Shown here: positions 1,875-53,694 of the stretch, piece after piece
Layout: every line of letters starts with the position of its first letter
Position numbering within the stretch: position 1 is the stretch's first letter
IMG/VR virus record: IMGVR_UViG_3300019360_000004
Location: 1-53,840 of that record
Length of the DNA stretch: 53,840 nucleotides
DNA from: a virus
Lineage: Duplodnaviria > Caudoviricetes
Direction: 5' to 3' (one strand)
The notes under the pieces: generated by a model
Databases searched by the model: none
What the model was told of the DNA's origin: nothing
The model's input: only the letters and a program-made list of their open reading frames with translations
Program-made: the position numbers and the translations under genes

Positions 1875-3413
1875 GTGTACACTATGCAGATGATTCCCGC
1901 CGCCGGGTTGCGTCGTCAACGGGCACGGGTGACGTTCTCACCACTCTATCAGGCGCATCTCCACACCTATGCGGCATTGCGGGAGATGTGGCGGGATAAT
2001 CCCATATTTTATGTGCGGTGGCGCTTTGGGATTGAGCCTACGTGGCAACAGGCGCAGATCCTGCAAGCCATTGTCCCGCCAGGGAGTAAGGTCTCAGTAC
2101 GGTCAGGGCATGGGATCGGCAAAACGACGGCGGCGGCCTGGGCGCTGTATTGGATGCTGGAAACACACGACTATGCCAAGGTGCCGTGCACTGCGCCGTC
2201 CTCGCATCAACTCCGTGATATTCTGTGGGGCGAGCTCAGCAAATGGCGACGTATTGCCGATGCAATGAGTATGCAACGCAGCGAGCATTCCACGGTGACG
2301 TTGGGCAAACTGTTTCGGCTGGTGACAGATAGTCTGTATGATCCGAGCGCACGCGAATGGGGGGCCTTTGCGCGGACGGCTCGCAAGGAAAATCCTGAGG
2401 CATTACAGGGGTTTCACGCAGAGCATTTATTGTTCGTGGTAGACGAGGCTTCGGGTGTTCCCGAAGAGATTTTCGAGGCAGGAGAAGGGGCATTATCGAC
2501 ACCCGGTGCGCGGGTGCTCTTGCTTGGAAACCCGACTCGCACGCAGGGGACGTTTGCTGCCAGCCATCTTCACAATCGTGGGGACTATACGACGCTGCAT
2601 TTTCGCTCCCAGGATTCCCCGCTGGTGCACGGAGGGTATCGTGAGCAATTGGTGCGAAAATGGGGTGAGGGGAGTAATATGGTACGGGTCCGCGCGGATG
2701 GGGAGTTTCCGCGCCAGGACGATGATGTATTGATTCCCCTAGACTTAACTGAACCATGTCTCATGCGTGATTCGGTCGAGGGGGTAGGCCCGCGTTGTCT
2801 TGGTGTGGATGTCGCGCGTATGGGCGCAGATCGTACGACGCTCGTGCTCCGTCAGGGGGCTCTGGTGACACATATAGCGATCTATGCGAAGCAGGACACG
2901 ATGCAGACGGTCGGCCAGATTGTGGGAGTGTTAGACCGATGGGCAGTGGATACTGTGATGGTTGACGTGATCGGGTTAGGAGCAGGCGTCTATGATCGCC
3001 TGGTGGAGTTAGCCCGCCAGGGGGTGGTGAAAGTGCCCATAGTTGCCGTCAACGTAGCGATGGCGCCTCCACGTCAATCATTGGTGGGAGAGGCACGGCC
3101 GCGGTTACTGCGGGATTATCTTTGGTTGGCGATGGCCTGCTGGCTGCGGGATGACGCGCCAGTGTTTACCGCACCTGATCGCCAGGCATGTGAAGACCTC
3201 GCGGGGGAACTGGCGAGCGTGCATTATCGACTGGACAGTAGCGGATGTATCGTGGTCGAGGACAAAGATACTATGCGGAAACGCCTGGGACATTCACCCG
3301 ATTTGGCCGATGCGTTAGGGTGTACGTTTGTCCCCCAGCGGGAGTCCTTGCCTCCGATGAACTTGGGCGCGGTATTGGAAGATTTATCACAGGTGAGTCG
3401 CTGGAGGGAATAA
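1875..3413 (+). CDS. terL: Terminase large subunit
   Basis: Walker A SGHGIGKT, Walker B FVVDEASG, GNP motif, nuclease GVDVARMGADRT and SPDLADAL. Confidence 0.95.
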   Translation: MYTMQMIPAAGLRRQRARVTFSPLYQAHLHTYAALREMWRDNPIFYVRWRFGIEPTWQQAQILQAIVPPGSKVSVRSGHGIGKTTAAAWALYWMLETHDYAKVPCTAPSSHQLRDILWGELSKWRRIADAMSMQRSEHSTVTLGKLFRLVTDSLYDPSAREWGAFARTARKENPEALQGFHAEHLLFVVDEASGVPEEIFEAGEGALSTPGARVLLLGNPTRTQGTFAASHLHNRGDYTTLHFRSQDSPLVHGGYREQLVRKWGEGSNMVRVRADGEFPRQDDDVLIPLDLTEPCLMRDSVEGVGPRCLGVDVARMGADRTTLVLRQGALVTHIAIYAKQDTMQTVGQIVGVLDRWAVDTVMVDVIGLGAGVYDRLVELARQGVVKVPIVAVNVAMAPPRQSLVGEARPRLLRDYLWLAMACWLRDDAPVFTAPDRQACEDLAGELASVHYRLDSSGCIVVEDKDTMRKRLGHSPDLADALGCTFVPQRESLPPMNLGAVLEDLSQVSRWRE

Positions 3414-4766
3414 ATGGCTGAGATACGCCGTAATGGAAGCACTACACATGGTCTCCCAACTAATTTGATGATGGAGTTGGGGACTACTGGCCTCCGGCGG
3501 TACGGTGGGTACATTCGTGAGCAGTACCTCCCAGCGCTTGTCGGTTTGCAGGGTGTGCGTACCTTCAAACAAATGGGCCGCGATTCTATTCTAGGTGGTG
3601 TGCTCTATGCCAATGAAACGTTGATCCGGCAAGCAGGCTGGCGAGTAGACCCTGCCGATCACTCGAATCTAGCCCAGGCACATGCCGATCTGGTTGACAG
3701 CATGCTGTTCCAGGATATGAGTCAGTCCTGGCCGGTCTTTCTGAGTGAGGCGCTGAGTTTTCAGCTCTATGGCTGGGCATATCATGAGATTTGCTGGAAG
3801 CGTCGCTTAGGCGAGATACCACCGTCGGGATATGATCCGACGAGTCCCGAGTGGGATTGGTGGGCGACCAGTCAGTATGATGATGGACTGATTGCTCCCC
3901 GCAAATTGCCGATTCGGTCGCAGGATACGTTGCTGCAATGGGAGTTTGACCGCAGTGGTGGCGTCCAGGCCATGGTGCAGCAAGATCCCATCGTCGGGAA
4001 ACAGGCGACCATTCCGATAGACAAGGCCTTGCTCTTTCGCCTTTTCTCGGAAAAGGCGAACCCCGAAGGACGGAGTTTGTTTCTTGCGGCGTATGATGAT
4101 TGGTATGCTGCGAAACATATTAAGCGCATCGAAGGGATTGGGATTGAACGCGACCTTGCGGGGATGTTTCACGCGCGGCTTCCGCCGGAATATCTGAGTG
4201 CCAATGCCTCCCTCGAGGAGGCAAATATCCGCGAATACGTCAAGAAAATGGTCACGCAAGTACACCGCGATGAGCTGGAAGGTTTGGTCACGCCTCTGGC
4301 GTATGATGCGAATGGCAATGAGTTATTTCAATTTGAACTTTTGACGACTGGGGGCACGCGGCAATTTGATACCACCGCGATCATTCAACGTTATGATACT
4401 CGTAAGTTACAAGCGGTATTAGCGAATATCCTGATGGTAGGGATGCAAGGCCGTACGGGAAGCTATAGTCTTGGTGAGACGCTGAGTGATCTGTACATGG
4501 CGGGCCTGACCGCCATTGCGCATAGTTTGACAGAGGTATTGAATCGCCATCTGCTCCCCCGGATCTGGGCACTGAATGCGTTACCGCGTGCGACCATGCC
4601 GCGTGTGGTGCATGGGCACTTGAAACAGGTCGATTTTGATAAATTTACTTCCGGAGTGCTACGGCTCAGTCAGGCTGGGATGGTATTAACGCCCCAGGAT
4701 GAAATCCATATTCGCATGGAGTCCGGCTTTCCGCACGTCGTCCCTGATGCACAGGAAGAGATCTAG
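3414..4766 (+). CDS. Portal protein (DUF935-like)
   Basis: 450 aa directly after terL; YGWAYHEICW, NPEGRSL and GIERDLAG motifs. Confidence 0.88.
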   Translation: MAEIRRNGSTTHGLPTNLMMELGTTGLRRYGGYIREQYLPALVGLQGVRTFKQMGRDSILGGVLYANETLIRQAGWRVDPADHSNLAQAHADLVDSMLFQDMSQSWPVFLSEALSFQLYGWAYHEICWKRRLGEIPPSGYDPTSPEWDWWATSQYDDGLIAPRKLPIRSQDTLLQWEFDRSGGVQAMVQQDPIVGKQATIPIDKALLFRLFSEKANPEGRSLFLAAYDDWYAAKHIKRIEGIGIERDLAGMFHARLPPEYLSANASLEEANIREYVKKMVTQVHRDELEGLVTPLAYDANGNELFQFELLTTGGTRQFDTTAIIQRYDTRKLQAVLANILMVGMQGRTGSYSLGETLSDLYMAGLTAIAHSLTEVLNRHLLPRIWALNALPRATMPRVVHGHLKQVDFDKFTSGVLRLSQAGMVLTPQDEIHIRMESGFPHVVPDAQEEI

Positions 4767-5656
4767 TGCCTTTTATCGTTACGTTTGGGCATCAGCGTTT
4801 GAGGAAAGCGCACGATCAGCGTTCATCACTCGAACGGCTCATTGAGGATACCGTGCCACGGATGCAGGCTGATGTGCTTATTGTCCTCGCCGGTACTGGT
4901 GCAATGCTCGCTCGTGAGACGATTGGTCGCCTACTGACATTGGGTGACGATGTCACGTTGACCGCGGTTCTGAGTCGGGACTGGGACGATAATGGAGAGC
5001 AGGACTTACGGGATGCGCTGATTGCCGCCATGGTGGGCCTGGGCTTAGCGGCCGTGCGTGTGACTCCAGGTCCTGAGGGCGTGTCGTCTGCGCCAGAACT
5101 GGCATTGGAAGCACTGCTGATGCAGTACGCCACGATGGAGATCGATGCGCTGACCCTCACAACCCGCGCCGCAATCCCTGACATCCTAGCGATGGCCCAC
5201 GCCTCCGAACTTCCACTGGCGGATCAGATTGATCTAGTACAGAATACCTTGGGACTTACATCGCGCCAGGTGCAGACGATAGCACGGTACCGGGCGGGTT
5301 TGGAGGCCGCTGGGGAATCCTCGCAACGTATCAGTGCTATGCTAGCGCGTCGTATCACGGCATTGCGACAACAGCGGGCAGAGACGATTGCGCGGACTGA
5401 AGCGCAAAATGCCGTGGTCCTGGGACAAGAGGCGGTCTGGCAGGATGCAGTGCAGCGTGGCCTCGTGCAGGCGGGCGATATCCGGCGCTATTGGGTCATT
5501 GGCGCCGGGGCATGTCCGACCATCTGTGCATTAATTCCCGGCATGAATCAGGAAGGCCGGGGTCTGGAGGAGCCGTTTGAAACACCAATTGGACCGATTA
5601 TGCGTCCTACAGCCCATCCCAACTGTAAGTGCAGTCTTGCAGGACGATGGATCTAG
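4766..5656 (+). CDS. Head morphogenesis protein (Mu gpF/SPP1 gp7-like)
   Basis: RAETIARTE, CPTIC and C-terminal PTAHPNCKC. Confidence 0.85.
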   Translation: MPFIVTFGHQRLRKAHDQRSSLERLIEDTVPRMQADVLIVLAGTGAMLARETIGRLLTLGDDVTLTAVLSRDWDDNGEQDLRDALIAAMVGLGLAAVRVTPGPEGVSSAPELALEALLMQYATMEIDALTLTTRAAIPDILAMAHASELPLADQIDLVQNTLGLTSRQVQTIARYRAGLEAAGESSQRISAMLARRITALRQQRAETIARTEAQNAVVLGQEAVWQDAVQRGLVQAGDIRRYWVIGAGACPTICALIPGMNQEGRGLEEPFETPIGPIMRPTAHPNCKCSLAGRWI

Positions 5657-23288: not shown

Positions 23289-26200
23289 ATGCCGATGGTA
23301 GTGCTCGAACTACAGGCGAAAGGCGCGGCAGAAGCGACGCAGGCCGTAAAATCGGTTGGGGATGCGCTGACGCAGTTTGCCACGGTGGTTGCCCGGAGCA
23401 GTGCCGATACGGCGGCGCTCGCGCAGGCCGTTGCCAAAGCCGAAGCCACCATGGGGCAGCTACGTCCAACCACCCAGGCCGATGCTGACAATTTGCGGGT
23501 GTTGCAACAACAAGTGACCGCTGTCAAAGACAGCTTGGGGGCTATGACCACGGCGACACAGCAGACCGCCACTGCAACGCAACAAGGTGCAACGAGTATC
23601 AAGCAGTTTGAACAAACGGTGCAGAGTAGTAGTCAGGCTGTTAAAGGAGCAACTCAGGATAGTCGAACGTGGCAAGTGTCGTTGCTCGATCTTGCCAAAG
23701 CTGGCGCCGTGATGGGTCTCGGCTTTCAGGGGATTTCGACAATTGCAGGGTGGTTTCGGGATGCTATGAGTAGCACCGTACAATTTCAACAGGCAATGGC
23801 CAATGTCAATACGCTTGTTCTCGGCAGTACGCAAGTGCAGGCACAATTACGAACTGAATTGCTGCAATTACCGCCAATCTTGGGCTCTGCTACCGAGTTA
23901 GCGAAAGGATTATATCAGGTACTCTCTGCGGGAGTAGAACCTGCAAAAGCCGTGGCGTTTCTCAAGGAGTCTGCGCTATTAGCCAAGGCTGGCTTAGCTG
24001 ATCTTGACACCGCAACGATTGCCCTGACCAAGACAATGGCGGCCTATAAAATCCCCGTCGAGCAGGCGTCCGCAGTCAGCGATGTATTATTCAAAGCTGT
24101 CGAAGTTGGCCAGGGCACGCTTCAGCAATTTGCCCAGGCGATGCCCCAGGTGACGCAATTGGCTGCGGCAATGGGCGTGAATTTCAAAGATACCGCCGCA
24201 GTGATGGCCACATTGTCGCAGACATTTAAAAGTACTGACACGGCTGCGACCGGCTTCGCATCGCTTCTGCGTCAGCTCTCGCAAAACAGTGCAGAATTTT
24301 TGGCATTAGGCATTGATATCAAGAAAGTGATCAGTGAAGAGGGCATTATTGGGGCTATTCGTATTCTGCAACAGGTCACAGGAGGTAGTTCCGAACGACT
24401 GCGTAAATTTGTCCAAGATGCCGAGGGCGTCAACGCTGCCTTGGCCTTGATGGGACCACAGTTTCAAACACTCATTGAGGCCCAACGGAAAATGGGTGAG
24501 GCCGCTGGCGTGGTAGGAAAAGCAGTCAAAGAACAGACGCAGACCGCAGGCGAAGCCTGGACGGCCCTGGTGAGTAGTCTTGATAAACTAGCACAGCAAC
24601 TTGCCCCGCCGTTTCTTGGGGCATTTGCAGCGATTGTGCAGGGTGCTGTGATATTGATAGAAAATCTTCGCACGTTGACCAAGACCGTCATCAATTTGTT
24701 TACTTTTAAGCCGACCAATGTGCTACCGACGGAAATACAAAAAACGGGTGAAGCTGCCAAGGCCGCCGCTGAAAATGTCAAACTATTGGATGATGCATTT
24801 AGAGACACAACTGATCGAGGTGAGCGAGTGAAACGGGCATTGGAGAATGTAAAGCCAACGCTCGAAGGGAATACCATAGAGTATACCAATCTTGGCACAA
24901 CATTGGGTGTGGTTATACCACAGATGGACACAGTAGCCAAAAAAGCAGAAGCACAGAAAAATGCTTTTGATGAGTCAACTAAAACCCTGACAGGCTTTAA
25001 TACTGCCCTCAATAATATCAAGAAATCTGGTGAGATTGGGCAGATCATTCCTACTGAGGAACTTCAGAAAAACCTGAAAACAGTCATCAACAGTCTTGGG
25101 GAGTTTGCTGAATCCGGCATACTGAGTAATACACAAGTACGTCAAGCGTTTGTACAGACTGAGAAAACCATTCGAGAAACGCAAGGCACGGGCTCCCAGA
25201 CATATCAAGATCTGATCGCCATGTGGAGTGGCTGGGAGGCGCAGGTACGCAACAGTACAGGAGTCGTATCGAAAGAAGTAGCCCAGGCCGCCGCGGTACA
25301 AGCGGCGGCCGCCGCGCAAGCCAAGCAGGCGCTGGAAGGCGAAGCCCAGGCCCGCCTCGCCGAGGCGCAGGTCATGCTCCAGCTCGCCGAGAGCAAGACT
25401 GTTGCGGAGCGCAAGATTGCGCAGGCCGCCGTCGATACCGCGAAACAGGCGGTCCTTAGTGCACGGGAACAGACCCTTGCTGCTGAGCAAGTGGCGCTTG
25501 CGAAGCAAAAGCAAGCCGTACAAGCGGACCTTACCGTCAAAGTGGAGGAGCGTAACGCCAGACTCATTGAGATCAATGCCAAGATGGAAGCGAATGCCGT
25601 GGAGCAGGCGGCCTTGGCTCACATCAGGGCCGGTGAGGCCGCGCTCGCCGCGGCACGACAGAAGCAAGTTGCCGCTGAAACTGCCTTGCGACTCGTTGCG
25701 GCGCAGCGTGAAGAAGCGCAAGCAGTCGTGCAGGGCGCGCAGGCGGTCGTGGCTGCGGCAGAGAGTCGGCTACAAGCCGCGTTGGTGACGAGTCGCGGGG
25801 TGATCGATGCCAATGTCCGCATGGCACAAGGGGACGTGGAAGCGGCGAAACAAGCCCTCTTTGCGGCGCAGCAGAAGGAACTGGCTGCACAACAAACCGC
25901 ATTGGCCTATAAGCGCGTTGAAATTGCCTCTGATACCAGTACGAGCACAGAGGTACGGAATCAGCAGTTGGCAGCGAACGCAGCGCAACAAGCCGCACTA
26001 GCCAGAGAGAAAGGCGCCGCGCAGGCGGCGGAGGGCTACCGCCAAATTCAGCAGTCAAGCCAGACAGCGGGGAAATCGGAGAGGGAACGCATAGATGCCC
26101 TCCGAGAGGGCTTCACAGACACGGAGAGCGGCATCACGAAGTTCAGTGATGGGCTGTCGCTTAACATTAGCAGAGTGAAAGACCTCAGTTTTACGATTAC

Positions 26201-27338
26201 TGGCATGGCGGCATCGGTGGGACTCTGGCTGAGTAATACCCCAGTCATTTGGGAAAAAATGGGATCGGATATCGCCACCGTTACGCGGCAAATGAGGGAA
26301 TTAGAGGCAGCTCAAAGGCGCCTTTATACAGACTTAATACAATGGCAATTCCCTGGCACCGGTGCATTTAACTGGATCAATAAGGGCCAGTTAGAAATCC
26401 TTGGTCAGCTCGGAAAGAGACTGCATGAACTCATGATGCAGTGGGCTAGAGACACGACCGATGTCCAGGCTCTTTCCGTAGCGATGGCTCGTGATGTCAA
26501 CCTGGCCTTCGCCGCACTCGGAATACAGACAGGACAAGCACTGAAAGCCGCCGCTGAGAAGGCGATTGCCGCTTTTCAGGCCATCCAGCGGAGTGGCACC
26601 CTGACCGGCGAAGCGCTGCAAGAACTGTTTGTCCGCAATGTATTACCAGCCATCCAGCAAGCCTATGGCAGAATGACAGGCTCGATCATGGCCATGAATA
26701 TGACGATGGTCGATGCTGTAGCCGCCGCGCTCGATTTCTTAGGTGCCAAATCCGATAAGATGTTGCGAGACGAGGCCGACGCGGCCAAGCGTGCCTTTGA
26801 GATTATCAAAGCGGCAGGTGCAGCCACCGGCCAAAATCTCGAGGATATCTGGACCAACGATGTCCTTCCCAAAATCGAAAAAGCTTACGGCAAGATGGCC
26901 GATAAGATTGTCGACGATAATAAGAAAATCCGTGACAGCGCGATGGAAGCCGCAGCAGCCGTAGGGCTCTTGGTCCCCACGAGTGTTGCTCCGCCCACTG
27001 GCCCTTTCCCTGGACCTCCGTCTGATGTCCCCTATGTTCCGCCATTAGGCCCTGGACCAGCTTCATACCAGCACGGCACCGCCTACGTCCCACGTACCGC
27101 CTGGTACCAACTCCACCAGGGCGAGCAGGTCGTGCCGCGTGGCATGCCCCAAGGGCAACCAGGGCGCGATGTGGCCGGCCCGATTCAGGTCACGTTTGGC
27201 CAAATCACCGTGCAGGTCCAGGGTGACGCCGGTGGCCGGGCCCCACAACAGCTCGGCCGTGACGTGGAAGAAGCCCTGGATAAAGCGATTCGTGCGGGAC
27301 GGTTTACCTACCAGATGAAACGTGCACTAGGATTGTAA
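23289..27338 (+). CDS. Tape measure protein (TP901-like core)
   Basis: 1349 aa, Ala/Gln-rich helical; FQQAMANVNTL...GLYQVLSAG; C-terminal GTAYVP..LHQGEQVVP. Confidence 0.92.
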   Translation: MPMVVLELQAKGAAEATQAVKSVGDALTQFATVVARSSADTAALAQAVAKAEATMGQLRPTTQADADNLRVLQQQVTAVKDSLGAMTTATQQTATATQQGATSIKQFEQTVQSSSQAVKGATQDSRTWQVSLLDLAKAGAVMGLGFQGISTIAGWFRDAMSSTVQFQQAMANVNTLVLGSTQVQAQLRTELLQLPPILGSATELAKGLYQVLSAGVEPAKAVAFLKESALLAKAGLADLDTATIALTKTMAAYKIPVEQASAVSDVLFKAVEVGQGTLQQFAQAMPQVTQLAAAMGVNFKDTAAVMATLSQTFKSTDTAATGFASLLRQLSQNSAEFLALGIDIKKVISEEGIIGAIRILQQVTGGSSERLRKFVQDAEGVNAALALMGPQFQTLIEAQRKMGEAAGVVGKAVKEQTQTAGEAWTALVSSLDKLAQQLAPPFLGAFAAIVQGAVILIENLRTLTKTVINLFTFKPTNVLPTEIQKTGEAAKAAAENVKLLDDAFRDTTDRGERVKRALENVKPTLEGNTIEYTNLGTTLGVVIPQMDTVAKKAEAQKNAFDESTKTLTGFNTALNNIKKSGEIGQIIPTEELQKNLKTVINSLGEFAESGILSNTQVRQAFVQTEKTIRETQGTGSQTYQDLIAMWSGWEAQVRNSTGVVSKEVAQAAAVQAAAAAQAKQALEGEAQARLAEAQVMLQLAESKTVAERKIAQAAVDTAKQAVLSAREQTLAAEQVALAKQKQAVQADLTVKVEERNARLIEINAKMEANAVEQAALAHIRAGEAALAAARQKQVAAETALRLVAAQREEAQAVVQGAQAVVAAAESRLQAALVTSRGVIDANVRMAQGDVEAAKQALFAAQQKELAAQQTALAYKRVEIASDTSTSTEVRNQQLAANAAQQAALAREKGAAQAAEGYRQIQQSSQTAGKSERERIDALREGFTDTESGITKFSDGLSLNISRVKDLSFTITGMAASVGLWLSNTPVIWEKMGSDIATVTRQMRELEAAQRRLYTDLIQWQFPGTGAFNWINKGQLEILGQLGKRLHELMMQWARDTTDVQALSVAMARDVNLAFAALGIQTGQALKAAAEKAIAAFQAIQRSGTLTGEALQELFVRNVLPAIQQAYGRMTGSIMAMNMTMVDAVAAALDFLGAKSDKMLRDEADAAKRAFEIIKAAGAATGQNLEDIWTNDVLPKIEKAYGKMADKIVDDNKKIRDSAMEAAAAVGLLVPTSVAPPTGPFPGPPSDVPYVPPLGPGPASYQHGTAYVPRTAWYQLHQGEQVVPRGMPQGQPGRDVAGPIQVTFGQITVQVQGDAGGRAPQQLGRDVEEALDKAIRAGRFTYQMKRALGL

Positions 27339-49231: not shown

Positions 49232-50101
49232 TTAGGTGATGTGTTGTGTCAGGTAGGCATCCACGGCCTGGGCCGTAGGATCCTTGTCGTAGAGCCAACG
49301 ACCTACGCCGAATTTTGCCGCAGCCCGTTTAAAGGCCATGGCTTCGGCATTTGACGTTGAGTCTCCGTAGCCGTCAACCTCCTCCTCTTCCTGCCCCGTG
49401 GCTTCGCGGACAATCAGGCCCTCGAGACAAGGAATGGTGAGCCGATAGGTAATCACACAAGCAGTCCCAACACGCTCGATACGCTCTACGGTGCCTTGCC
49501 AGCCGGGCGCGTAGGCATCGAGTACTTTGGCGACGGTTGTCCAATGCAGATATGCAATTTGTGCGGATTTGCCACTTTTTGCCCGGAGCGTCTTCGTGGC
49601 GATACACGCGGCGGGTAAAGGACGGCTGAGGTCGGTCACAATGGTACGAATACTGCGATGATTACTGCCCCATGCGGCGTGAGAAACGTTGGGCGTGGTG
49701 GGTGGTGGTGACGTGAGTGGTATAGACGTCGGGTCTGGCTCAGAGAGCGGGGTTTGGCCATTGATCGCATGCGGGGTTTGTTGTTGCTGCTGGAGAAAGA
49801 CATGAGCATGCTTATACAGCCCCGCTGCGATGCGATGGGCGCAGCGGCCCGCCGGTGCCTGATACCGTGCGTCGTCACACAGACACGATCCGTCCGGACG
49901 GATCGTGTGAAACTTGCCGGGTTCGGAGCGACTGGCGACCACCAGCTGCTCATCGGCGTTTTCTGCCACCTGGCCATCACGCACCAGGACAATGGCCGAT
50001 TCCATGCGATCCCCGACTAACTCGGGGAATCGCTGTTGGAGCGTGCGAGCACACGCATACACGGCGTGCTCCCAGCGTTCAGTCGGAGTTGCGATTGCCA
50101 T
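49232..50101 (-). CDS. Rad52/Rad22-like ssDNA annealing protein with N-terminal SWIM finger
   Basis: CLCDD..CAH; YLHW..LDAYAPGW; AEAMAFKRAAAKFGVGRWLY. Confidence 0.85.
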   Translation of the reverse strand: MAIATPTERWEHAVYACARTLQQRFPELVGDRMESAIVLVRDGQVAENADEQLVVASRSEPGKFHTIRPDGSCLCDDARYQAPAGRCAHRIAAGLYKHAHVFLQQQQQTPHAINGQTPLSEPDPTSIPLTSPPPTTPNVSHAAWGSNHRSIRTIVTDLSRPLPAACIATKTLRAKSGKSAQIAYLHWTTVAKVLDAYAPGWQGTVERIERVGTACVITYRLTIPCLEGLIVREATGQEEEEVDGYGDSTSNAEAMAFKRAAAKFGVGRWLYDKDPTAQAVDAYLTQHIT

Positions 50102-51399: not shown

Positions 51400-51825
51400 T
51401 TACGCCTCTCGGAGGGCGGCCAGGAATCCACCGCGTCGGGCAATCAGCGCCTTCGCTTCCCGCAGGTAGGGAGCGAGTGGCTTCTGGGTCGTCGTGTTGA
51501 TGTGCACGATGATCGCGGTGGGCAGTACTTCGTGGTCGAGGTACGTCGCCACGTCCGCCGCGAACTGCTCCCAGGGCCGGTTGCCACGGACGCTATTGCA
51601 GTGGTGACAACACGTCACCAAGTTTTCGGGGCCATTGTCGCCGCCGTGGCTGTGCGGGGTCAGGTGGTCGAGGGTCAGTTTGATGCCGTCCTCGATGCCC
51701 TGGCCGCAATAGGCGCAGGCGAGGCCGTCGCGGAGGTAAATGGCTAATCGTTTGCCTGGCCGAATCCAGTTCATCCCTTGACCCTGTCCGTTGCTTTTCT
51801 GATGACGATCCAGTATGCTATGCAC
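51400..51825 (-). CDS. HNH endonuclease
   Basis: RDGLACAYCG..LDHLTP..GG..NLVTCCHHCNS. Confidence 0.9.
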   Translation of the reverse strand: MHSILDRHQKSNGQGQGMNWIRPGKRLAIYLRDGLACAYCGQGIEDGIKLTLDHLTPHSHGGDNGPENLVTCCHHCNSVRGNRPWEQFAADVATYLDHEVLPTAIIVHINTTTQKPLAPYLREAKALIARRGGFLAALREA

Positions 51826-51884
51826 GATTGTTTCTCCTGTGCTTTCAGAGGGAATGTGAGACTCAGGAGCCCTAGGTACTGTCC

Positions 51885-52046
51885 CTACCTGGGGCTCTCC
51901 TGTGTGTGCTGTCCGACAGGTTGCTGCGGCGGGCGGGCCGCCCATTCCGCTTCGATCCTCCGGATGTGTTCGTCCTCGATGTGCTTATACCAATCGCTGG
52001 CGCCCTTCCGTTCCTGCTTGTGGCCGGTCACGTGGCCATGCTTCAC
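51885..52046 (-). CDS. Small first gene of the early operon
   Basis: GGGAGG RBS and GTG start. Confidence 0.5.
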   Translation of the reverse strand: MKHGHVTGHKQERKGASDWYKHIEDEHIRRIEAEWAARPPQQPVGQHTQESPR

Positions 52047-52062
52047 GGTGTTTTCCTCCCTG

Positions 52063-52136
52063 CGTGTTTCGCCTGTGCTCAGGCTGAGCTGCATCCTAGC
52101 AGCCTCATCAGGGGGCGAGCGTTACGCCCCGACACG
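52063..52136 (-). ncRNA. Type III hammerhead-like ribozyme with variant stem II
   Basis: CGUGUC / GGGGCG-loop-CGCCCC / CUGAUGA / hairpins / GAAACACG. Confidence 0.7.
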
Positions 52137-52325
52137 GTGTGTTGTGATGCCGGCTCGCTGTGCTATGCGTTACGCTGCGCGGGTGCCTCCAGGGTGGCCG
52201 CCGTGTGTGGCGGGCTCCCTTCGTCCCAGGGCTTGCTGTCGGGTTACGGTGCCCGGCGTCGTCTGCCTCGTGCGTCCGACCTTGCTGGTCTCGCGCTGTG
52301 CTGTTATCATTTACTGTCTGTAGTA

Positions 52326-52354
52326 AATATACCATGGTGTTCATAGAAACACAA
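52326..52354 (-). promoter_or_regulatory. Early operon promoter
   Basis: TTGTGT-17 bp-TATATT with extended TG. Confidence 0.55.
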
Positions 52355-52377
52355 GTCTGTTTTCCCAGGAGGTGCGT

Positions 52378-52602
52378 ATGCCACCCTTCCCGGATACTAC
52401 GTTAGGTCTGCGGGTCCGTGCCGCCCGTCTGCAGGTGGGTATGAGCCAGGGCGATCTCGCCCGGCGGATTGGCATGACCCAGGCAAATCTCTGCATGATC
52501 GAGCAGGGAGATACACAAAATCCCGGCGCCGGCCGGATCCGCGCGATTGCGCAGGTGCTGCATGTGAGTGCGGATTATTTGTTGGGATTGTCGGATGAGT
52601 GA
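52378..52602 (+). CDS. Xre/Cro-C1 HTH regulator
   Basis: LGLRVRAARLQVGMSQGDLARRIG...LHVSADYLLG; AGGAGG RBS. Confidence 0.9.
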   Translation: MPPFPDTTLGLRVRAARLQVGMSQGDLARRIGMTQANLCMIEQGDTQNPGAGRIRAIAQVLHVSADYLLGLSDE

Positions 52603-52649
52603 TGAGAAGAAAGGGGGGAGCCCCAGGGTCACCGTGGGCTTAGGGCTCC

Positions 52650-52907
52650 TTACTCACAATGCTTTGGTTCAAACAGGACGCACCCGAAGGTAGGGAGCAC
52701 CCGCAGGCGTGCGGCAAAGCCGCTTCCATCTGTGACGACGGCAGGCTCCTGGAGGGCAGCCATCGTGTGCTCATGCTCGTGCGCATTGCCGTGGATGATC
52801 CGCGCGCAATAATGGTGCTCGGATTCATAGACCTCGTTCTAGTCTGTGCTATGCACATAAATCCCTTCATGGGCTCCAAAGAAACGACAGTCAACACACT
52901 GCTGCAT
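52650..52907 (-). pseudogene. Cys-rich small gene interrupted by in-frame TAG
   Basis: AAGGAG RBS; MQQCVDCRFF..STD*NEVY..DGSGFAARLRVLPTFGCVLFE; TAG at 52839-52841. Confidence 0.65.
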
Positions 52908-53366: not shown

Positions 53367-53567
53367 CAAAGTTTACATAATATCGGATCGCGAAGTTTAC
53401 TAGTGGTAGTTTATGCTGGTCTACATGCATGGATTATCAAAGTTTACATAATATCGGTGTTTCTCTGAAGTCTTTTTCTTTCAAGAAGTTGTAGACGGAA
53501 AAAATGCGCATTATCAGAAGTTAAGTATTTTGCTGGTGGTTGACAGTTTCGCGTATTATCAGAAGTT
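53367..53567. repeat. Direct-repeat cluster in AT-rich non-coding region
   Basis: caaagtttacataatatcgg at 53367 and 53438; attatca(g)aagtt at 53433, 53510 and 53555. Confidence 0.75.
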
Positions 53568-53694
53568 GTGAATTGTCTTGACATCCATGAAGAGGGTTTG
53601 ACAGGCGTTTCTCTGTGTGTGTACACTAGGAGCATTGTTGTTGTAGTTTGTAGGGTATGCGATGCCCGTTCTCTCGTAGTATATAGGAGGTTGT

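Follow-up and report, generated by a model that had tools for sequence, protein, structure and literature searches.

The locus considered here raises the question of whether a hammerhead ribozyme in which two hairpins stand in place of stem II can be a genuine self-cleaving element, and of what such an element would do in front of a phage early operon. The window (i.e., the whole stretch of DNA that was analysed) is an entire viral record; its 53,840 bp are bounded by direct terminal repeats. Structural genes occupy the plus strand over about 1-31 kb, while a minus-strand gene block at 32-52 kb includes a C5 methylase, an Erf/Rad52-like protein and an HNH endonuclease (Table 1). The leftward operon opens with orf53, continues with the HNH endonuclease gene and later includes the Erf/Rad52-like gene. 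The element that precedes orf53 is read here, with a probability of roughly 0.6, as a genuine type III hammerhead self-cleaving ribozyme, inherited along with the HNH gene that it precedes.

Table 1. Features of the window, with positions counted from its first base.
Feature	Position	Strand	Remarks
Mu-type portal	3414-4766	+	structural block
Tape-measure protein	23289-27338	+	structural block
Erf/Rad52-like gene	49232-50101	-	further along the leftward operon
HNH endonuclease gene	51400-51825	-	141 aa, GTG at 51825; Pfam HNH_5 4e-10, PHROG HNH families, homologues
orf53	GTG 52046 to stop 51885	-	no family match
Shine-Dalgarno GGGAGG	52060-52055	-	ahead of the orf53 GTG at 52046
Type III hammerhead ribozyme, whole	52136-52063	-	sequence, Rfam, shuffles, R2 model, covariation
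Stem III 5' strand CGUGU	52136-52132	-	5 bp with ACACG 52067-52063
C17	52131	-	site GUC; predicted scissile bond between 52131 and 52130
Stem I GGGGCG/CGCCCC	52130-52125 with 52117-52112	-	6 bp
Loop I UAACGCU (heptaloop)	52124-52118	-	fits the UNmYN loop-1 motif
Core strand CUGAUGA (C3-U4-G5-A6-U7-G8-A9)	52111-52105	-	
Extra G	52104	-	directly after CUGAUGA
Hairpin A GCUGC-UAGGAU-GCAGC	52103-52088	-	
Linker UCA	52087-52085	-	between hairpins A and B
Hairpin B GCCUG-AGCA-CAGGC	52084-52071	-	directly 5' of G12
GAA (G12-A13-A14)	52070-52068	-	
Stem III 3' strand ACACG	52067-52063	-	pairs with CGUGU 52136-52132
Non-coding leader, about 190 nt	52132-52319	-	5' fragment that the predicted cleavage would release
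Promoter-like site	52354-52326	-	TTGTGT 52354-52349, 17-nt spacer, TG 52334-52333, TATATT 52331-52326; by eye
Copies of GCGTAACGC	52175-52167, 52127-52119 and 25550-25558	-, - and +	
XRE-type helix-turn-helix regulator gene	52372-52602	+	76 aa; PHROG phrog_8 1.1e-16; divergent from the leftward operon

The phage has no close relative in the phage collection, nor in IMG/VR when the Erf-like protein and the 512-aa ORF at 1875-3413 serve as queries. A nucleotide search of the phage collection with 51400-52800 gave zero matches in the near and distant modes, and tblastn of the HNH protein against this collection gave a single weak match (43% identity over 43% of the query) to an unannotated metagenomic record. 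The product of orf53 matches no PHROG family and has no similarity to orf65 of the related contig L002, described below. Near the right genome end lie a perfect 20-nt direct repeat (53367-53386 and 53438-53457, spacing 71 nt) and a 24-nt repeat (53506-53529 and 53551-53574, 83% identical, 45 nt apart); both adjoin promoter-like sites and may be operator, origin or packaging signals.

The core features of the Rfam family RF00008 are all present in the element: the strand C3-A9, the bases G12-A13-A14, the A15.1-U16.1 pair (A52067-U52132) and H17, which is C52131. The topology is that of type III hammerheads, with stem I capped, stem III open and both stems flanking the cleavage site, and the element sits in non-coding DNA, with a promoter-like site on one side and the operon's first Shine-Dalgarno sequence and start codon on the other. 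An earlier note, made from the letters alone, had drawn the minus-strand sequence and architecture at 52136-52063, predicted cleavage between 52131 and 52130 and placed a ribosome binding site right after the ribozyme. The sequence and architecture agree with that drawing letter for letter, the cleavage coordinates coincide, with C17 at 52131, and the binding site is the GGGAGG that is followed by the GTG of orf53. Two further observations concern this stretch. An ATG at 52092-52094 (minus strand) lies within hairpin A, formed by the loop end and the first base of the 3' strand; it shares the frame of orf53, and GAGG precedes it by 8 nt, so that an alternative 69-aa start would fall inside the ribozyme. 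In addition, a 15-nt direct repeat (14 of 15 positions identical) links 52065-52079, which spans loop B, the 3' strand and GAAACA, to 51829-51843, just upstream of the HNH start; it may have been left behind when orf53 came to lie between ribozyme and HNH gene, or it may be due to chance.

When Rfam is applied to the whole window at gathering scores, no family matches. With E-value thresholds, RF00008 (Hammerhead_3) matches 52138-52061 over the full length of the model (positions 1-54) with 33.1 bits and an E-value of 0.0026, the sole match at E<=1 when 4227 families are compared with all 53,840 bases. The hammerhead identity proposed in the earlier note is, thus, borne out by the Rfam covariance model, though at a score below the gathering score of 48.5, which is a threshold set by the curators and not a structural feature. 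The score is reduced because a 25-nt insertion falls in stem II. The canonical hammerheads of the related loci L002 (29.2 bits) and L203 (39.4 and 36.0 bits) likewise score below 48.5. A descriptor that calls for CUGANGA, GAAA, U16.1, H17, a stem III of at least 5 bp and a stem I of at least 6 bp matches none of 1000 dinucleotide shuffles of the window; once relaxed to stems of at least 4 bp each, it matches 22 of 1000. A covariance model, R2, built only from the hammerheads of L002, L003, L004 and L203 and, thus, excluding the window sequence, ranks the window site first (25.7 bits, E 3.3e-5) among 99 sources with 397,013 bases. A model built from L003 and L004 only (R1) does not find the window site at E<=10; L009 and L220-L223 were covered by R1 alone, not by R2.

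The relatives of the HNH gene place this match in a family context. With the HNH protein as the query, the comparison covered 8 viral loci, 80 of 391 metagenomic loci and 21 genome loci (mostly metagenome-assembled genomes (MAGs) of several phyla). Locus L002 has a type III hammerhead at 2931-2985 (29.2 bits), 16 nt before the start of its HNH gene. L003 and L004 (records that also appear as L012 and L016) bear their hammerhead at 2918-2980, and in it a single additional U separates A9 from G10.1; this hammerhead has no RF00008 match at E<=1, yet its stems covary with those of the L203 hammerheads. L203, a contig of a Verrucomicrobiota MAG, has two near-identical type III hammerheads (566-627 and 1096-1157) that flank an HNH gene with its ATG at 673 and its stop at 1091, the first ribozyme ending 45 nt before the start codon and the second beginning 4 nt after the stop. 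Double cleavage in L203 would excise a monocistronic RNA of about 530 nt with 5'-OH and cyclic-phosphate ends. The reading of the window element as a hammerhead is strengthened by these relatives (L002, L003/L004 and L203), which bear hammerheads at the same place by HNH homologues. Most other HNH loci have no hammerhead in the Rfam, R1 and R2 scans; therefore, the association with HNH genes is a minority one, with five distinct lineages among roughly a hundred loci. Twister-P5 ribozymes also occur in this neighbourhood. One lies downstream in L002 at 3645-3708 (44.1 bits, above the gathering score of 37.6), such that hammerhead and twister bracket the HNH gene plus a 65-aa ORF, and another is found downstream of the HNH homologue of L006 at 5562-5614 (45.8 bits, above the same gathering score).

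Comparison of the ribozymes adds evidence of covariation. With the window among the aligned sequences, 12 of 17 pairs are changed on both sides and 97.5% of the cells are paired, figures that are somewhat flattering as the alignment was fitted to the model. None of 500 shuffles reaches the observed pairing, and controls in which the alignment was slid are 32-49% paired. Over five homologous hammerheads, every position of stems I and III is paired (100%), and compensatory changes occur. The core is identical between the window and L002, though their leaders are 29% diverged, and stem III differs between the two at three pairs yet pairs in both (CGUGU/ACACG in the window and GAGGU/ACCUC in L002). 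A MAFFT alignment of three hammerheads was judged wrong and was left out.

The feature that sets the window element apart is found where a G10.1-C11.1 pair of stem II would adjoin A9 and G12: two hairpins are present instead, of which A adjoins A9 and B adjoins G12. The A9 strand runs on into hairpin A and the G12 strand into hairpin B, so that a junction takes the place of stem II. Alone, the 78-nt element is predicted to fold into stems III and I and hairpins A and B at -33.0 to -35.1 kcal/mol. The fold with hairpins A and B of 5 bp each has -33.0 kcal/mol; the best core-free fold, in which A gains a G52104-U52087 pair and becomes a 6-bp hairpin, has -34.3 kcal/mol; and the minimum-free-energy fold, in which A is extended by UGAG:CUCA and covers U7-A9, has -35.1 kcal/mol. 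Two other arrangements are possible but disfavoured by their predicted energies, namely, a Y-shaped stem II closed by a G52104-C52071 pair (-24.6 kcal/mol, 8.4 kcal/mol worse than the two hairpins at -33.0) and a single long stem II (-22.0 kcal/mol, about 11 worse). Most likely, one hairpin would stack on the G8-A13 and A9-G12 pairs as stem II, while the other would project outwards.

Each hairpin has features that would suit it to the role of stem II. Docking between loop I and loop II is described for the motifs UNmYN and RNnA (PMC2632901). Of the two hairpin loops, AGCA of hairpin B conforms to RNnA and could pair through AGC with the GCU of loop I, whereas loop A (UAGGAU) fits neither UNmYN nor RNnA; these are matches of sequence only. 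Loop B may, thus, dock with loop I through AGC and GCU. Hairpin B as stem II would make hairpin A an insertion at the A9/G10.1 junction. In the CChMVd(+) hammerhead an additional residue, A10, follows A9 and precedes G10.1 (De la Pena and Flores 2001, cited in PMC3705267 and PMC6155905) and lowers the rate only moderately, and a G at this extra position is strongly detrimental (PMC3705267). Hairpin A, in turn, resembles stem II of L002, as GCUGC/GCAGC matches GCUGG/CCAGC at four pairs and has a compensatory change at the fifth. The insertion adjoins catalytic residues at the A9/G10.1 junction or at the C11.1/G12 junction.

The two-hairpin form is seen in the window only: it is found in none of the 109 HNH loci and in none of 112 loci whose stem II region is long. 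The latter come from a scan with a pattern that allows 18-44 free bases, which gave 112 stretches, 9 of them passing a loose descriptor. Only two of the nine (L109 and L132) are convincing, and their design differs from that of the window. A two-hairpin candidate in L199 was set aside, its poor stem I marking it as probably due to chance. The ribozymes of L109 (12485-12553) and L132 (8710-8778), both on the minus strand, are type III hammerheads in which stem I has 6 bp and A9 is followed by a G. Their loop I is complementary to the beginning of the stem II region, and the Shine-Dalgarno sequence lies inside that region (in L132 also the ATG), such that the ribozyme overlaps the translation start. 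In the literature searched, no natural hammerhead bears a hairpin insert at stem II, although variants published only in supplements would escape such a search. The two-hairpin hammerhead, known from a single sequence, is on this basis regarded as a genuine though atypical representative of an established class of ribozymes.

Several explanations compete with that of a genuine, inherited ribozyme. A chance resemblance, in which a GC-rich leader has CUGAUGA and GAAA between complementary stretches by accident, is hardly credible. It could draw on the RF00008 score being under the gathering score and on loose searches with the same family, which also give matches in 7 of 14 control genomes, but it is at odds with an E-value of 0.0026 across the whole window and family library, with the absence of the descriptor from 1000 shuffles, with the recovery of the site by the independent model R2 and with the hammerheads that relatives carry at the same position. 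The main rival, unlikely but to be taken seriously, is a relic: an ancestral canonical hammerhead, similar to that of L002, would have been disabled recently by insertion of a hairpin of 17-20 nt, the intact core would reflect recency alone, and the RNA would no longer cleave. The uniqueness of the architecture to the window sequence, the low Rfam score and the position of the insertion next to A9/G10.1 or G12, where a G after A9 is detrimental in CChMVd (PMC3705267), all suit a decayed ribozyme, as does the rearrangement of the lineage, in which orf53 lies between ribozyme and HNH gene, unlike in L002, and the 15-nt repeat joins 52079-52065 to 51843-51829. Against decay, the core bases and both outer stems are intact despite the 29% divergence of the adjacent leader from that of L002. 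By rough arithmetic, about 13 core bases would stay unchanged by chance in about 1% of cases, a figure that is uninformative should the insertion have happened very recently. Both hairpins are, moreover, perfect 5-bp stems, and the core strands are free in the near-optimal fold at -34.3 kcal/mol.

A further explanation, which is rather improbable, is that of a regulated ribozyme, switched by the extra hairpin or by the leader. Either UGAG:CUCA would hide U7-A9, or the 3' strand of stem I would pair with the Shine-Dalgarno GGGAGG, so that protein, temperature or transcription speed would gate both cleavage and translation. The earlier note had suspected that the core could be sequestered, and the minimum-free-energy fold does pair U7-G8-A9-G (U7-G10.1) with CUCA, the core-free folds making up 8.6% of the ensemble of the 78-nt element. 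When the hammerhead fold is enforced on longer precursors, it comes out 3.0 kcal/mol (146 nt) and 5.0 kcal/mol (265 nt) above the ensemble, and in the fold predicted for the 265-nt precursor the CCCC of stem I is taken up by the Shine-Dalgarno sequence. The covered core and these energies also count against the main reading of an active hammerhead. The 9-mer GCGTAACGC, of which the window has three copies versus 0.34 expected, could likewise be counted in favour of regulation, with one copy in the leader and one in stem-loop I, 48 nt apart. The suggestion of the earlier note that the ribozyme is switchable fares less well. The gap between the core-sequestering and core-free folds is only 0.8 kcal/mol (-35.1 vs. 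-34.3), a difference that ordinary tertiary docking would outweigh; the architecture and its alternative pairings are known from one sequence only; and there is no ligand-like domain, the hairpins being too small for a plausible ligand pocket. L002 has no comparable Shine-Dalgarno sequence or hairpin. The predicted energy for opening the Shine-Dalgarno sequence shifts little on cleavage (4.0 kcal/mol before and 2.8 after), a change too small and too model-dependent to serve as evidence. Fold predictions for one sequence, thus, leave a switch possible but lend it no positive support.

The region upstream of the ribozyme is itself conserved. A -10-like sequence, TGgTATATT (52334-52326), aligns with TATAAT in L002 and belongs to a promoter-like site that a scan for consensus promoters does not call, because its -35 hexamer matches at only three of six bases. 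Transcription from this site would start near 52319. The leader at 52292-52143 is 71% identical to 2771-2924 of L002 over 156 nt (79.7 bits, compared to a maximum of 31.1 in 200 shuffles) and matches no Rfam family at E<=10. ORFs of 78 and 80 aa over the two leaders were rejected as genes, since 1-nt indels between the leaders break any shared reading frame. Patterns drawn from the leader occur only on the L002 contig in the viral collection and nowhere in the genome contigs, and nhmmer with the leader finds, among 223 loci, the window and L002/L010 only. When the 13.8-kb L002 contig is compared to the entire window at E<=1e-5, only HNH ORFs are in common, namely, the homologous HNH gene and a second ORF at 4871-5467 (43% over 44 aa). 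As leader and HNH gene are common to the two while the rest is unshared, the leader, hammerhead and HNH gene travel together between otherwise unrelated phages. Of the two neighbouring copies of GCGTAACGC, that in the leader is conserved in L002 and the other forms the loop and part of stem I of the hammerhead. Candidate roles for the conserved leader are those of an sRNA, of a leader bound by a protein or of one part of a mobile HNH cassette. With the promoter-like site, the leader and the divergent XRE regulator in place, the label of early-operon leader given in the earlier note is fair, although it depends on a transcript start that we infer.

For the reading as an inherited and active hammerhead, the proposed mechanism is as follows. 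The early leftward transcript would start near 52319, and the RNA would fold into stems III and I and the two hairpins and cleave itself co-transcriptionally after C52131. The 5' product would be the conserved leader of about 190 nt with a 2',3'-cyclic phosphate end, while the 3' product would be the orf53-HNH mRNA, which would start with a 5'-OH and a compact hairpin (stem I) and have its Shine-Dalgarno sequence 3 nt (52062-52060) past stem III. Most likely, then, the ribozyme would serve to cut the conserved leader off the orf53-HNH early mRNA. Such processing of the early mRNA by the hammerhead is a reasonable inference from the sequence and agrees with the proposal made in reviews that hammerheads of bacteria and phages process polycistronic or leader-bearing mRNAs (PMC6155905, PMC6765202, PMC3088659).

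Among known systems, the closest are the type III hammerheads of RF00008, many of which are described from phages and prophages (Perreault et al. 2011; PMC3088659). The window element shares with these its core, the GUC site, the type III topology, the intergenic position in a phage and the mRNA strand. It differs in having two hairpins, with 34 nt in total between A9 and G12, and no single stem II. The variants described by Perreault et al. include small core insertions (A6a, U13a and G2a/C2b) and a stem II as short as 1-2 bp (PMC3088659); the insertions there are of one or two nucleotides, although the supplementary figures of that source may hold unusual variants. If hairpin B is stem II, the insertion site at A9/G10.1 is shared with CChMVd(+), which keeps its activity, and with L003/L004; by contrast, the insertion is of one nucleotide in these and of 20 nt, including a whole hairpin, in the window. 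ORFs flanked by ribozymes are also known, as in the triple hammerhead around ardA (Perreault et al. 2011; PMC3088659), and hammerhead and twister ribozymes have gene neighbourhoods in common (PMC6765202, PMC6155905). The HNH homologues of L203, with twin hammerheads, and of L002, with hammerhead and Twister-P5, are similar to these, whereas in the window the 5' hammerhead stands alone, the Rfam comparison at E<=1 giving no second ribozyme in 53,840 bases. A link between hammerheads and HNH endonucleases is absent from the literature searched.

Engineered hammerheads offer a comparison of another kind. RiboJ-type insulators are 5' processing elements, and aptazymes have aptamers grafted onto stem II. 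Like a RiboJ-type insulator, a hammerhead in the 5' UTR of the window operon would remove upstream RNA of variable sequence and leave a defined 5'-OH before the ribosome binding site; unlike the engineered elements, it is natural, and its extra hairpin corresponds to no known aptamer. A bolder reading, and a long shot, is that of a mobile leader-hammerhead-HNH cassette that moves among unrelated phages and includes a four-helix hammerhead whose hairpin toggles over U7-A9 and times leader release; the released RNA of about 190 nt may then have its own function with the HNH protein. If true, this would be the first example in nature of a hammerhead that contains its own regulatory arm and would give phage self-cleaving ribozymes a concrete role in insulating and timing a selfish nuclease gene.

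The role of bacterial and phage hammerhead and twister ribozymes is still called open by reviews (PMC6155905, PMC6765202). The locus described here ties such ribozymes to one gene family, that of a small HNH endonuclease accompanied by a 5' hammerhead, by twin hammerheads or by a hammerhead and a twister, and two otherwise unrelated contigs additionally have a conserved non-coding leader in common. If the window element is inactive, it is simply a decaying ribozyme. If it is active, stem II of the hammerhead would be replaceable by a helical junction, a natural precedent for stem II engineering. The wider idea, which is testable, is that ribozymes cut the mRNA of a mobile nuclease gene free of its surroundings.
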